From: a virus | Length of the DNA stretch: 45,423 nucleotides | IMG/VR virus record: IMGVR_UViG_3300033273_000525 | Location: 1 to 45,423 of that record | Reading direction: 5' to 3' (one strand) | Shown: positions 2,327-38,437 of the stretch, piece after piece | How positions within the stretch are numbered: position 1 is the first letter of the stretch | Layout of the letters: every line of letters begins with the position of its first letter | Position numbers and translations under genes: made by a program | The notes under the pieces: generated by a model | The model's input: only the letters and a program-made list of their open reading frames with translations | What the model was told of the DNA's origin: nothing | Database searches by the model: none

Positions 2327-2354
2327 ATACTATTTCCCAAATTGATATTAACAA
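2327..2354 (-). promoter_or_regulatory. Sigma-70-type promoter candidate, TTGTTA-16 nt-TAGTAT
   Basis: Minus-strand -35 at 2354..2349 and -10 at 2332..2327. It follows the terminator at 2350..2386 directly. The ATG at 2322 lies about 5 nt past the -10. Confidence 0.4.
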
Positions 2355-2919: not shown

Positions 2920-3507
2920 TCAGTCAGCCTTGAATGGGTGGCCGCCAGTGAGAAGGCGGCTGATATCAAAGCCGTTGCTGACCGCTTCGTTCCAGGCAGC
3001 ATCCACTGCGGCTTGGCTGTCTTTCTTGCGGGGCACGGGGCGCAGGCCGTACATGTCAGGTGAGACGGTGGCTGCCTTCGTCATGATGAAGTCCCACTCG
3101 GTCATGTCGGCGTACTCCTCGACTTGAGAGATCTCGTCGAGTTCTTTTTGCAGACCTTTTTGGGTCATGCTCAGCACTTGAATGCGCTTGATGTCGAAGT
3201 TGTAGATCGGCATTGCAATCGCAAACTTCTGCGGCTCTTCCGTTCCATCGTCTTTGAGGCGGCGGCGGTAGTTAGCGCCCATCTCCTGCTCGATCTCGTC
3301 GGCAGATGCTTCAGCGGCAAAACGGAACGGCTTGCCTTTGCCGGTTTCGTCTTCGCCCCAGACCTCGAAGTAGCAGAGGGGTTCGTTCGCCAGAATTGCA
3401 AAACGCACTTGGCCGTCAGCCTTGATCTTGCTGGGGCTCAGGTAGTCGTTTCGGCTGCCACCGCCGCCTTTGAAGGCGTCACTGTGTTCCTTGGGGATGA
3501 AGCTCAT
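2920..3507 (-). CDS. Putative ssDNA-binding protein (T7 gp2.5 / DUF669-like); function tentative
   Basis: 195-aa clean ORF. Sits in a replication/recombination module with the nuclease. The family assignment comes from remembered sequence pattern only. Confidence 0.7.
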   Translation of the reverse strand: MSFIPKEHSDAFKGGGGSRNDYLSPSKIKADGQVRFAILANEPLCYFEVWGEDETGKGKPFRFAAEASADEIEQEMGANYRRRLKDDGTEEPQKFAIAMPIYNFDIKRIQVLSMTQKGLQKELDEISQVEEYADMTEWDFIMTKAATVSPDMYGLRPVPRKKDSQAAVDAAWNEAVSNGFDISRLLTGGHPFKAD

Positions 3508-7742: not shown

Positions 7743-8044
7743 TCATCTCCACCTACAAAGACGAGTGCCCTTTCTACGCACCAACTCGTTGGTCGACTGG
7801 GGTTTCCAGCACTCCTGACTTCATTCACACTATTCGTGAAGCTATGGAAGAAAGCGTCGACTATGTCGGTGTTTTTGATGATGAAGGGGTTTGCAAAGGC
7901 ATCTGGTGCCGTGAAACTGACGTCGATTACGGCGAAGGTGAGTGTTACGACGTCATGTATGTCGTAAACCAGTATTACGTTTTGGAACGACCTAGTCAGA
8001 GTTATGACTTCCAGTATGCACTCAAAAAGCTCAGTCTCAAATGA
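7739..8044 (+). CDS. Hypothetical Cys-rich acidic protein (101 aa)
   Basis: ATGA-coupled start. Protein-like composition. Confidence 0.6.
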   Translation: MIISTYKDECPFYAPTRWSTGVSSTPDFIHTIREAMEESVDYVGVFDDEGVCKGIWCRETDVDYGEGECYDVMYVVNQYYVLERPSQSYDFQYALKKLSLK

Positions 8045-12930: not shown

Positions 12931-13275
12931 GTGAAGGTTCAAGAAGCCGTTAAGTATTGTCCCGAAAAATTTGGTGAGGCATGGCTTTCATGTCTGCTCA
13001 CCATGGTGCAAGGCGACGTCACAGCCTTAACTCTGAAACACGGTCTTATTGCTGCGAAAACCGGGGGAATAATGGCAACGTCTTATTTTATTGCTGTGCT
13101 CTGCACTAAAAAGCAAACGACCTACCTAGATGTATTACTTACAGGTTGCCTCACGGCCATCGCTGACTTCGCGTCCCACCCAAGTCACTTCGGTGGTCCG
13201 GCAACTGAAGCCATCGTCACTGGTATGGGGGCAGCTTTTTTGGCATTGCTGCTTCACCTAATTACTCGGAAATAG
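12931..13275 (+). CDS. Multi-pass membrane protein (holin candidate); start uncertain
   Basis: In-frame GTG at 12931 (alternative 12919) after the divergent HNH start. Three or four hydrophobic segments (AWLSCLLTMV, IMATSYFIAVL, VLLTGCLTAIADF, GMGAAFLALLLHLI). Converges on the endolysin. Confidence 0.5.
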   Translation: MKVQEAVKYCPEKFGEAWLSCLLTMVQGDVTALTLKHGLIAAKTGGIMATSYFIAVLCTKKQTTYLDVLLTGCLTAIADFASHPSHFGGPATEAIVTGMGAAFLALLLHLITRK

Positions 13276-13996
13276 CGCTGCAGGCTCTCTTGTAAAGAGT
13301 AAGGCGGTCTTCAATGCCGTTATACCCGCCGTTTAGTACACGAGTTACTTGATATACATCAGTGCCTTCACAGACTGCAGCCCAGTTGTTCTCTTCGATC
13401 CAGCAAACTGCGGATAGAAACGGGTACTGCTTAGCGACGTAGTCTGCGCCTTCTTGCATTACTTTGTCGTCGGCCATGCCATTACGTTCCAGCCAGTTGC
13501 TGAAGCGTTGGTAGTTGTAGCGGCCGGTTAGTTGGATGCAGCCGCCGCCGAAAAAGATTTTGCCGTCACCTGGTCCGTTGCCCAAGTCGCTGCGGTTGTC
13601 GTACATGCGGGTGAAGTAGTCGTCGTCGCCGAGTTCCTTCATCCAGCGGTAACGGCCGGTTTCGTGTGCTGTCTGAGAAATTAGATGACGGCGCTGCTGC
13701 ACACTTGTCATGCCGGTGCTGTAGATGAGCTTGTTGAGATCGCCCATAAACTTGTCGTCGAAATGCTGAGGCTTCCAGCCTGAGATTTCGGCAACCTGCT
13801 CAGCACTGACGAGCCACTTACCTTCTTTGGGTGCTACGGCAGTTGACCAGGTTTTGTACCACTCTTGGTCGCAGTCGAAGCAGTCGGGGCATAGCTGCAG
13901 AATCTTTTGCTCAAGCTCAAGCAAGCCGGCAGTTTGGTGCCCAAGCTTCTTGTAGTACCTGAACAGGTCAAGCAGGCGGATCTGTCTCGTGCTCAT
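13262..13996 (-). CDS. Endolysin, glycoside hydrolase family 19 (chitinase-like)
   Basis: GGGCIQLTGRYNYQRF matches the GH19 signature-2 pattern. QTAHETGRYRWMKE supplies the catalytic-Glu context. Confidence 0.85.
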   Translation of the reverse strand: MSTRQIRLLDLFRYYKKLGHQTAGLLELEQKILQLCPDCFDCDQEWYKTWSTAVAPKEGKWLVSAEQVAEISGWKPQHFDDKFMGDLNKLIYSTGMTSVQQRRHLISQTAHETGRYRWMKELGDDDYFTRMYDNRSDLGNGPGDGKIFFGGGCIQLTGRYNYQRFSNWLERNGMADDKVMQEGADYVAKQYPFLSAVCWIEENNWAAVCEGTDVYQVTRVLNGGYNGIEDRLTLYKRACSAISE

Positions 13997-14252
13997 CTAA
14001 CCAGCGGTAGTGAATGCTTAGCGGCGGACCCAAACCAGTCGTATCCGTACCAGGGTGGTGCGTAACGATGGTGCGTGGTTTGTCTCCAGGTTGCGCGGCG
14101 TGCCAAGCATCAATCTCGGCGTCGATACGAGGCTTGAGCGTTGCGTGAAACTTGAAATCCTGAGCGTGCTTTTTTAGGTGGTCGGTCCAGTGCTTTTCAC
14201 CAAACCGAGCCAGCCAAATGCCGTCTTCAGGAATGCCGCTTACTTTTTTGGG
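13968..14252 (-). CDS. -1 frame extension (91 codons) reachable only by a frameshift at C_CCA_AAA_AAG; the fusion would be 136 aa
   Basis: The -1 frame is open from 14243 to TGA 13968..13970 and encodes VSGIPEDGIWLARFGEKHWTDHLKKHAQDF... It has no ATG or GTG, and its only TTG is near the 3' end. It overlaps the endolysin start by 29 nt. Confidence 0.4.
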   Translation of the reverse strand, partial: PKKVSGIPEDGIWLARFGEKHWTDHLKKHAQDFKFHATLKPRIDAEIDAWHAAQPGDKPRTIVTHHPGTDTTGLGPPLSIHYRWLDEHETDPPA

Positions 14253-14377
14253 AACACGCGGGTCAGAATTTCCAGCACAATTTGGATCACGCTGTTGCTG
14301 CGAAGGGGCGACAACGCGATGATTTCAGATGCAGCGGCAAGGCCGATTGCGATCATTGCGGTGGTGACGGGATCCAT
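14240..14377 (-). CDS. 45-aa single-pass membrane peptide (zero-frame product; holin-like position)
   Basis: MDPVTTAMIAIGLAAASEIIALSPLRSNSVIQIVLEILTRVFPKK. Ends CCA AAA AAG TAA. Below the track cutoff. Confidence 0.55.
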   Translation of the reverse strand: MDPVTTAMIAIGLAAASEIIALSPLRSNSVIQIVLEILTRVFPKK

Positions 14378-20239: not shown

Positions 20240-21064
20240 TCAATACTCAAGAATAGATGCGTACCAGTTCGACCCGCTGTCTTCGGTGACAAACATGAAC
20301 AAGTACGTTGTGCCTCCTGTTAGTGATGGGGCTGATCCGCCAGGCCAGTTAATACCTGAAAACCAGTTGACCGAACCAGCGCTGTACGTCATTTCGAGCG
20401 TAAAAGAAAATGCAACGCCGTTACTAGGAATGTTGGTTGGGTTGTAGTTGGTGGTTCCGCTAACGATATCGGTGAAATAATTTGAAAGGTCTAAGTTAAT
20501 CGTGCCGCCGGTAGTTACTCGATCTTGCGCATACGCACCATTGATGTGCAGAGTTTTTTCTGGGGAAAGTTCGCCGATGCCAACTTCACCTGCGCTGTTA
20601 ATGGCGACTCTCTCTGTGCCGTTGGTTACGATATTGACTTCGTTCGTCGCACCAGCAAATAAACCGTTCGACGTATCTCCTACACCAAGGGAAGGTGCTG
20701 CAGCTGTGCCCGCTGGCAAAATCAACGCACCAGTCATCGTGTCGCCGCTAAGCGCCACAAAAGAACCGCCGCCGCCAGTGGTTTGCCAAGCAGTCCCGTC
20801 GTAAATTTTTAGGTCGGCTCCACTGGTTGTGTCGAGCCAGATTTCGCCAACAGAGTTTCCGGTGTGACCGCCGACAGCAGGGCTGCTGTTAGGTGCAGAC
20901 GTGCCAATGTGAACCGGGCCTGCCTTAATCAGGTTGCCGCCTGCGTCTTTAAAAAAGAGGCCAGTGCTAGCAACGTTTGTATTAAGGGCAATTTGGCCGT
21001 CCGACATGTTGCCTGGAACGGGCCTTTTACTTGCCGTATTTGACCGTAAGTTCTGCAGCGCCAT
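20240..21064 (-). CDS. Tail fibre-like protein (274 aa)
   Basis: Gly/Thr/Ser-rich. Motifs GEIWLDT...LKIYDGTAWQ are typical of fibre N-terminal parts. Lies in the fibre cluster. Confidence 0.75.
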   Translation of the reverse strand: MALQNLRSNTASKRPVPGNMSDGQIALNTNVASTGLFFKDAGGNLIKAGPVHIGTSAPNSSPAVGGHTGNSVGEIWLDTTSGADLKIYDGTAWQTTGGGGSFVALSGDTMTGALILPAGTAAAPSLGVGDTSNGLFAGATNEVNIVTNGTERVAINSAGEVGIGELSPEKTLHINGAYAQDRVTTGGTINLDLSNYFTDIVSGTTNYNPTNIPSNGVAFSFTLEMTYSAGSVNWFSGINWPGGSAPSLTGGTTYLFMFVTEDSGSNWYASILEY

Positions 21065-33393: not shown

Positions 33394-33422
33394 GGCCCGC
33401 CATTAAAGTCCTAGAAAACAGT

Positions 33423-33620
33423 CTAGCGACGACGTTTCATCTTATCCATTTCTTTTTGCTGCTCATCGTTTAGCACTTTAAAGTAGGCGCTCCAACCGAT
33501 GAGTTCTTCGGGGGTCATGGTGGCGCGAACTTGCGACAAGCTCATGCCTAGTTCTTTGGCAACGCCAAACTGAAGCATGAGCCAGTTGTCTTTGCGAAGT
33601 TCTGCGCTCAGGATTTTGGG
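33423..33620 (-). CDS. gpT-like -1 frameshift extension of the tail chaperone (the GT product would be about 178 aa)
   Basis: The -1 frame is open from the heptamer CCCAAAA (33620..33614) to TAG 33423..33425. It encodes KILSAELRKDNWLMLQFGVAKELGMSLSQVRATMTPEELIGWSAYFKVLNDEQQ and has no start of its own. Confidence 0.6.
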   Translation of the reverse strand, partial: PKILSAELRKDNWLMLQFGVAKELGMSLSQVRATMTPEELIGWSAYFKVLNDEQQKEMDKMKRRR

Positions 33621-33955
33621 TCCATGTCAGCGGCTTCGTCATCGGTAAGCACAGCCAGCATTAGTGCTTGCAGATCCTTGTCCTTAACTTCATGTTTTAG
33701 GACGTCAATCTCTCCTGCGCTAAAGAGGGTTTGACCGTCGGCATTTTGTGCTTTAGAAAGCAACAGCTGTAGTGCAAAAGCGTTGGCGTCGTCGGACTTG
33801 GCGTTCTTTTGAGCACGCTCGCGCTCTGCCATGGTCAGCGGCGTCACGTACATTTCGAATGTCGTTCCATCCGAGAGTTCGACTTCTTTTTTGACTGGTT
33901 CGAGGTTGGCTGCTTTACGGAGTTTGTCGATTGCACGCAGATTGCTGGCGGGCAT
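33608..33955 (-). CDS. Tail assembly chaperone (gpG-like)
   Basis: 115 aa, between the major tail protein and the tape measure. Ends GAC CCA AAA TCC TGA, which contains the slippery C_CCA_AAA. Confidence 0.8.
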   Translation of the reverse strand: MPASNLRAIDKLRKAANLEPVKKEVELSDGTTFEMYVTPLTMAERERAQKNAKSDDANAFALQLLLSKAQNADGQTLFSAGEIDVLKHEVKDKDLQALMLAVLTDDEAADMDPKS

Positions 33956-38393: not shown

Positions 38394-38437
38394 GACGGGC
38401 TCCTAAAAAAGGGTTTACGGCAGGCGTCCCACTAGGA

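Follow-up and report, generated by a model that had tools for sequence, protein, structure and literature searches.

A probable programmed -1 ribosomal frameshift beside the endolysin gene of Synechococcus siphoviruses and their relatives

The subject of this work is a small gene in the lysis cassette of a viral DNA stretch, IMG/VR record IMGVR_UViG_3300033273_000525 (45,423 nucleotides (nt); this whole stretch is called the window), and the candidate programmed -1 ribosomal frameshift at its end. The lysis locus is read on the minus strand, and its features are collected in Table 1. An earlier note on this DNA had described a 45-codon open reading frame (ORF) running from 14377 to 14240 with two slippery heptamers in phase before its stop, and rereading the minus strand bears this out: the ORF ends TTC CCA AAA AAG TAA, and both heptamers are canonical X_XXY_YYZ motifs in the zero-frame phase. 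It has a single ATG start, conserved among relatives, while a TTG further upstream (14383) is not conserved in them, and no dual-start motif for two isoforms was found at this ORF. Three-frame translation shows the -1 frame to be open from about 14325 to its TGA, with 91 codons after the slip site (VSGIPEDGIWLARFGEKHW...ETDPPA). Together with the ORF listing, it confirms everything that had been said of this extension, namely its length, its stop at 13968..13970, its lack of any ATG or GTG and of any upstream TTG (the sole TTG lies 210 nt downstream of the slip site), and the 29-nt overlap of its 3' end with the endolysin gene, whose ATG lies at 13996. The endolysin is read in the frame of the 45-codon ORF.

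Table 1. Features of the lysis locus and of the tail-chaperone slip site in the window
Feature	Position	Strand	Remarks
Zero-frame ORF, 45 codons + TAA	14240..14377	-	ATG 14377..14375; membrane peptide MDPVTTAMIAIGLAAASEIIALSPLRSNSVIQIVLEILTRVFPKK
Slip site	14243..14252	-	overlapping heptamers C_CCA_AAA (14252..14246) and A_AAA_AAG (14249..14243)
Zero-frame stop TAA	14240..14242	-	directly 3' of the slip site
-1 frame extension, 91 codons + TGA	13968..14243	-	VSGIPEDG...ETDPPA; reachable solely by frameshifting
Endolysin, 244 amino acids, GH19/chitinase-like	13262..13996	-	PHROG phrog_181 (endolysin), E = 4.6e-33; phrog_14712 (chitinase), E = 2e-23
Upstream cassette partner, 81 amino acids	14414..14659	-	N-terminal hydrophobic helix and charged coiled-coil-like tail; phrog_26178 (unknown function), E = 4e-12
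90-amino-acid ORF	13003..13275	+	MVQGDVTALTLKHGL...LHLITRK; 2-3 hydrophobic segments; runs towards the endolysin gene and overlaps its 3' end slightly
Tail assembly chaperone (G/GT-type) slip site C_CCA_AAA	33614..33620	-	stop one codon later

Taken in one genome, such a pattern is weak evidence. When the window was scanned for heptamers in phase that have a zero-frame stop close by and 50 or more open codons in the -1 frame, six loci came out, against about 1.3 in shuffled sequence, and for this reason the single-genome pattern is only suggestive. Four further loci of the scan, at 2336..2342 (CCCAAAT), 7800..7806 (GGGTTTC) and 38411..38417 (GGGTTTA) on the plus strand and at 20953..20947 (TTTAAAG) on the minus strand, are probably ordinary gene overlaps or antisense frames. 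The same CCCAAAA heptamer had also been reported, in the same phase, at the tail-chaperone G/GT site of this genome, and this proves correct: a 115-amino-acid ORF (33955..33608) ends GAC CCA AAA TCC TGA, and in the -1 frame it stays open as far as a stop shortly ahead of where the tape-measure gene begins (33393). We can take this site as an internal precedent for C_CCA_AAA with a stop one codon later. That the lysis-cassette site is itself the tail assembly chaperone G/GT is ruled out, given that it lies 19 kb away from the G/GT pair (33955..33394) and encodes a membrane peptide.

The argument is therefore carried by relatives. The whole window has no close match among deposited phages, and a blastn search of this region against phage records returned just two cultured relatives, the Synechococcus siphoviruses KBS-S-2A and S-CBS1, the same two that tblastn recovered with the extension as query. 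Both have, in this order, an 81-amino-acid membrane/coiled-coil ORF, a membrane ORF of about 50 amino acids and the endolysin, and in both the small ORF closes with an in-phase A_AAA_AAG and a stop one codon later (GCA AAA AAG AGC TGA in KBS-S-2A, CAA AAA AAG GAC TGA in S-CBS1). Their -1 frames are homologous to the window extension from the first codon past the slip site (ELIPPDGRWLFRFS..., GLIPADGRWLWRFS..., VSGIPEDGIWLARFG...). The KBS-S-2A record leaves this frame unannotated, and S-CBS1 gp23 is called from an internal TTG 27 nt past the slip site, so that conserved residues are cut off. A protein search with the 136-residue fusion returned the -1-frame part alone, called from spurious starts, and the DNA of the matched contigs again reads TTC CCA AAA AAG TAA.

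Searching with a profile of six extensions yielded 195 IMG/VR stretches (80 loci kept), 133 database proteins and four contigs of metagenome-assembled genomes (MAGs), and the comparative set that we used consists of 71 distinct sequences drawn from the two cultured phages, IMG/VR contigs and metagenome contigs. All four MAG contigs, which came from a scan of genome contigs, show the same two-frame arrangement; deriving a host range from prophages was given up, these four being the only candidates and probably mis-binned phage DNA. From the side of the short product, a search of 1.84 billion representative proteins with the 45-residue peptide gave 29 homologue clusters, all of them short ORFs of 38-84 amino acids in which homology stops at or near the C-terminus. 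A few of these homologues deviate: in P0137, P0139 and P0140 the zero frame continues past KPKK for 23-29 non-conserved residues, without an adjacent stop, and P0134, which has FPY, not FPK, and carries a long basic tail, may stand alone as a form that lacks the slip site.

Every one of the 71 distinct relatives has a slippery heptamer in the zero-frame phase whose A-site codon is a Lys codon: A_AAA_AAG alone in 30, C_CCA_AAG in 24, C_CCA_AAA overlapping A_AAA_AAG in 16, and C_CCA_AAA alone in one. The zero-frame stop follows the heptamer directly in 28 loci and after one codon in the other 43. Judged on these alignments, conservation of this extent is far beyond chance. The residues encoded at the slip site differ between loci (FPKK, xFPK/FPK, ARKK, AKKK, GKKK, KPKK, QAKK, KQKK, KAKK, SRKK) while slipperiness and phase are invariant, pointing to selection on the nucleotide motif. 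Codon choice shows the same: all 41 F-P-K loci use TTC CCA AAR, whereas elsewhere in the same sequences Phe is TTT in 44% of cases and Pro is CCA in 35%. Codons neighbouring TTC CCA are saturated with synonymous changes, and a conserved Pro 18 codons upstream of the slip site uses all four codons, while a block of about 15 nt around the slip site is invariant. The heptamer and the two-frame arrangement, whose fate in related phages the earlier note had left to an alignment, are thus kept in 71 of 71 distinct relatives and in the four MAG loci besides.

Could the downstream frame be a gene of its own, started at an internal TTG or GTG, at a non-canonical codon or by termination-reinitiation, with the heptamer being incidental? 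Starts in the -1 frame are regularly called by gene-finding programs, the S-CBS1 record begins gp23 at such a TTG, and 14 of the 71 loci do have some ATG, GTG or TTG before a conserved Trp. Nevertheless, 57 of 71 have none between the upstream stop of the -1 frame and this Trp, the window has none until the distant TTG mentioned above, and where a start exists its position is not conserved. The conserved residues of the extension (IP.DG.WL.RF) begin right behind the slip site, with IP.DG.W upstream of the TTG annotated in S-CBS1. Moreover, codon periodicity was followed in two clades: upstream of the site variation is highest at position 3 of the zero frame, and from 6 nt downstream onward at position 3 of the -1 frame. 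A switch of periodicity within 6 nt implies that purifying selection on the -1 frame begins at the slip site. The downstream frame, for which an own start or poor conservation in relatives had been named as possible objections, hence shows protein-level selection from the slip site onward and, in those 57 relatives, no start before the Trp. Since a separate gene also fails to explain why the in-phase heptamer is absolutely conserved while the amino acids change, we regard this explanation as quite unlikely.

The change of frame could instead occur in the mRNA, if RNA polymerase slipped on the A run and gave a mixed pool of transcripts. Runs of six A's are present in 37 loci and runs of seven, eight or nine in some, and such runs can slip in bacteria. 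However, 24 distinct loci keep the same arrangement with CCCAAAG, whose three A's are too short for slippage, and two loci with CCA AAG AAA (L019, L020) and one with CCA AAA AGG (L021) interrupt the A run and still retain C_CCA_AAR. The conserved X_XXY_YYZ phase, in addition, matters for tRNA re-pairing and not for the polymerase. Transcriptional slippage as the source of the frame change is accordingly very unlikely. One MAG contig (JBELHZ010000071.1; L095:545-556) has a run of nine A's at the slip site (CCA AAA AAA AAG TAG), long enough for polymerase slippage to be a possible contributor in this lineage, next to frameshifting by the ribosome.

A more trivial possibility is that one A was lost from the A6 run by a sequencing or assembly error, and that the real gene is an ordinary ORF of 136 codons. 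Seven A's would indeed fuse the frames, and the homologues, checked for single fused ORFs as had been proposed, include two: P0030 in L091, with four A's (3125-3140 of that sequence), and P0052 in L092, with seven (likewise at 3125-3140). Both come from long-read '_pilon' contigs of one study, and L092 has a further indel in a run of four C's (3400-3420) that breaks the endolysin N-terminus. Because of this origin and of the second indel, it is the fused cases that are the likelier errors, and we consider P0030 and P0052 unreliable, with homopolymer errors the probable cause; for the same reasons we have set them aside as proof of a functional fusion. If they were real, they would show that the fusion protein is a functional product. 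All 71 distinct sequences, which come from many independent assemblies and include two cultured phages, keep two frames; the 24 distinct C_CCA_AAG loci offer no homopolymer to miscount; and the zero-frame stop always lies 0-1 codon past the site. An artefact is thus extremely unlikely.

The joining of the 45-residue peptide to the 91-codon extension by a programmed -1 frameshift, as first proposed from the window, has consequently passed the comparative tests put forward for it. We consider it very likely, on the sequence evidence, that the 45-codon ORF and the 91-codon -1 frame are one recoded gene expressed through programmed -1 ribosomal frameshifting, and that this gene probably makes both the 45-residue peptide and a 136-residue extended form. 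Ribosomes would start at ATG 14377, and most of them would stop at the TAA (14242..14240) and release the 45-residue membrane peptide. A fraction would slip back by one base while decoding a Lys codon, on C_CCA_AAA, on A_AAA_AAG or on both (14252..14243), read 91 more codons and end at the TGA (13970..13968), by which point the endolysin gene has already begun. The shifted product would be a 136-residue protein with the same membrane anchor and a soluble helix/beta-hairpin domain of about 90 residues, and the junction peptide expected of it is ...RVFPKKVSGIPEDGIW..., in the window form ...RVFPKKVSGIPEDGIWLAR and in the S-CBS1 form ...SLKQKKGLIPADGR... Of the -1 motifs measured in E. coli, C_CCA_AAG and A_AAA_AAG rank in the top three for efficiency (Sharma et al., 2014, PMC4066793), and frameshifting on the dnaX heptamer by itself reaches about 14-16% in vitro (bioRxiv 10.1101/2025.10.02.679949).

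We also looked for elements that could stimulate the shift. RNAalifold on all 71 sequences gave no consensus structure and no pairs downstream of the site; run per clade and on the 20 sequences of the window clade, it gave just a 7-bp hairpin, which lies in the invariant F-G-D-K-H-W codons, shows no compensatory changes, and is not claimed as a stimulator. The window itself has a hairpin that starts 10 nt after A_AAA_AAG (-34.1 kcal/mol, z = -3.4), and it is not conserved in relatives. An upstream Shine-Dalgarno-like AAGGTG, seen on inspection of the alignment in some clades only, is likewise not claimed. The sole conserved flanking feature is the stop 0-1 codon past the heptamer. An adjacent stop codon can help frameshifting, an effect known as the 'shifty stop', and the conserved stop may act in this way here; alternatively, it may just keep the short product clean. 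The slip would be ribosomal, with the heptamer and the stop codon next to it as its main determinants.

What the two products do is the weaker part of the proposal. The 45-residue peptide has one transmembrane helix at about residues 4-22, where Kyte-Doolittle hydropathy averages 1.9, then a second helix at 28-42 that is strongly amphipathic by its hydrophobic moment, and a basic tail, TRVFPKK. Its charges (-1 at the N-terminus, +1 in the loop, +3 in the tail) fit and suggest an N-out/C-in topology, and for this reason the extension is predicted to lie in the cytoplasm. In its small size, its transmembrane helix, its charged C-terminal tail and the place of its gene beside that of the endolysin, it has features typical of holins. 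It matches PHROG phrog_22542 (E = 9e-11) and phrog_15106, both of unknown function, and searches for membership in a holin family gave no Pfam or NCBIfam match and, in PHROG, matches only to these families. The extension has no relative in Pfam, PHROG, NCBIfam or PDB by profile or sequence searches, and the 136-residue fusion gave nothing informative in Pfam, PHROG or NCBIfam either. AlphaFold2 models the extension (predicted local distance difference test score, 75) as a short helix, a long helix of about 30 residues and a beta hairpin, the same elements being predicted for a full-length fused homologue, and Foldseek found no fold relative of the models in PDB or BFVD. The models thus describe what may be a new helix/hairpin domain of about 90 residues with no detectable homologue. 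It is ruled out as a spanin, having no Cys and no lipobox and being predicted as cytoplasmic and not periplasmic.

The most likely place of action of the two isoforms is the cytoplasmic membrane, and the efficiency of frameshifting would decide the ratio between them. They could be a holin-type protein and a longer form that modulates it; alternatively, the long form could be a membrane-anchored factor that works with the endolysin, and the short form its partner or a by-product. By analogy, a holin-type or lysis-regulating isoform pair is plausible. The more specific idea that cyanobacterial siphoviruses set their lysis clock by recoding, with a holin-like peptide of 45 residues and an extended form of 136 residues that would serve as its antiholin, as its regulator or as a partner for docking the endolysin, is one that we put forward tentatively, as a minority possibility.

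It could also be that the frameshift is real and only the 136-residue product matters, for instance as a membrane-anchored endolysin partner or in a spanin-like role, the 45-residue peptide being a by-product. The extension is strongly conserved and its gene overlaps that of the endolysin, in one relative (L037) it runs in frame into the endolysin, and the fused ORFs of L091 and L092, if genuine, would show that the long form alone suffices. Yet an ordinary fused ORF would be the simpler way to make such a protein, and it is essentially never seen in short-read data. The stop held 0-1 codon past the site in 71 of 71 relatives fits selection for a clean short product, its alternative explanation being a stimulatory stop. 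To our knowledge, all well-studied bacterial and phage genes with a programmed -1 ribosomal frameshift (dnaX, G/GT, IS3 OrfA/OrfAB) use both products. That the long form is the only one to matter is therefore rather unlikely, although of all the alternatives it is the one we take most seriously.

Several points weigh against the frameshift as a means of making a lysis pair. Homology lends no support to a function in lysis: the PHROGs matched by the small ORF are of unknown function, and for the extension neither sequence nor fold searches gave a relative. Lying next to the endolysin in all loci, the gene can be assigned to the lysis cassette, but this position does not tell its function. As no conserved 3' structure or 5' Shine-Dalgarno-like element was found, the efficiency of frameshifting could be low. 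If the P0030 and P0052 fusions were real, the short form would be dispensable in those lineages. Finally, the 90-amino-acid ORF at the other end of the endolysin gene could be the holin of the window clade. It is conserved in one relative (L005, 1389-1661, minus strand) and has no Pfam or PHROG match; it is absent from KBS-S-2A and S-CBS1, which have a soluble ORF of about 52 amino acids in its place.

The recoding signal is of the textbook -1 tandem-slippage kind, and it is the gene that is new: our literature search found no paper on frameshifting in S-CBS1-like phages or in any holin-like gene. The closest systems in mechanism are phage G/GT and the A_AAA_AAG sites of dnaX or of the IS3 type. 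The -1 frameshift in the genes for tail assembly chaperones of tailed phages (lambda G/GT) was reportedly described by Xu, Hendrix and Duda in 2004. As in G/GT, a canonical X_XXY_YYZ lies near the end of a short ORF, a stop follows soon after, a short and a C-terminally extended product result, and what is conserved is position and not sequence. Unlike G/GT, the gene sits in the lysis region, between tail-fibre genes and the endolysin, and the part shared by both products is a 45-residue membrane peptide instead of a soluble chaperone. With E. coli dnaX (tau/gamma) and IS3/IS911 OrfA/OrfAB it has in common A_AAA_AAG, a shift-prone tRNA-Lys and two proteins of fixed ratio with a common N-terminus. 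However, dnaX and the IS elements have an upstream Shine-Dalgarno-like sequence and a downstream hairpin or pseudoknot, of which we found no conserved counterpart here, and in dnaX it is the shorter of the two proteins that arises by the frameshift, while here the longer one would.

On the side of function, the gene resembles dual-start holins (lambda S105/S107, phage 21 S68/S71) in being a small membrane gene beside the endolysin with two isoforms whose ratio would be set in translation, and in a product with a transmembrane helix and a basic C-terminal tail. The isoforms of dual-start holins differ by 2-3 N-terminal residues through alternative starts, whereas here they would differ by a C-terminal domain of 91 residues through recoding. 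Pfam, PHROG and NCBIfam searches gave no sequence or family relationship between them. Frameshifting has been tied to the expression of a phage lysis function before: according to a passage of PMC10885494 that cites Kastelein et al. (1982), expression of the lysis gene of MS2 depends on frameshifting in the coat gene. MS2 differs in being an RNA phage and in having no conserved slippery heptamer for the shift; ribosomes that change frame there, which is rare, terminate prematurely and then reinitiate at a separate lysis ORF, without a trans-frame fusion protein being made. A computational hint of recoding near lysis genes exists in other siphoviruses too, as frameshifts were predicted 'in genes near predicted holins' of Streptomyces cluster BI2 phages (PMC9671017). 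That hint is a single sentence on a GeneMarkS prediction in a genome announcement, in which neither a slip site nor its conservation is analysed; those phages infect unrelated hosts, nor is any homology shown.

The lysis machinery of these Synechococcus siphoviruses is essentially uncharacterised so far, and the corrected gene model would add a membrane protein of about 120-140 residues to the lysis cassette of phages that are widespread in marine and freshwater environments. It would also restore a conserved protein that public records miss or start wrongly, KBS-S-2A leaving it unannotated, S-CBS1 cutting it at an internal TTG and the database calls beginning at spurious codons. Phage -1 frameshifts are usually met in tail chaperone and capsid genes, and this gene adds a well-supported family from another context. 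With about 70 natural variants that swap C_CCA_AAG and A_AAA_AAG, have an adjacent stop and show no obvious RNA stimulator, it amounts to a natural experiment on what frameshifting requires in cyanobacteria. If the isoforms do control lysis, this would be a new way of fixing a holin/regulator ratio: a lysis-timing pair would arise from ribosomal frameshifting instead of from dual starts or separate genes, and its ratio would depend on tRNA-Lys and on translation status, coupling lysis timing to the physiology of the host.

The neighbours of the gene deserve a few words. The 81-residue protein precedes it in KBS-S-2A, S-CBS1 and the metagenome loci too, and its matches to Rz-like spanin PHROGs are non-significant (E = 0.04-0.15). 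The earlier label of the window enzyme as a GH19 endolysin stands as far as the endolysin and chitinase matches in PHROG are concerned, these being strong, while the Pfam Glyco_hydro_19 match falls below threshold (E = 0.064). At the DNA level the window endolysin is 67% identical to that of KBS-S-2A. In relatives the catalytic domains vary, from GH19-like in the window to Phage_lysozyme with Peptidase_M15_3 and to Glucosaminidase with Peptidase_M15_3, and despite this the frameshifted gene lies directly upstream of the endolysin gene, and overlaps it, in all loci. In L037 (IMGVR_UViG_3300021368_001381, 1700-1760 of the locus) a difference of 1 nt just upstream of the endolysin ATG lets the extension continue in the frame of the endolysin; a ribosome that has shifted would in this locus produce a fusion of membrane anchor, extension and endolysin, a single case that may be an assembly error. 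Endolysins of all these kinds, in the window and in L001, L002, L091 and L092, the 404-residue enzyme of S-CBS1 included, share an N-terminal segment, KPIRLIDLFRYYKKLGHQ, whose first codons overlap the C-terminus of the extension (13968..13996 in the window), which suggests that this segment is a module travelling with the frameshifted gene.

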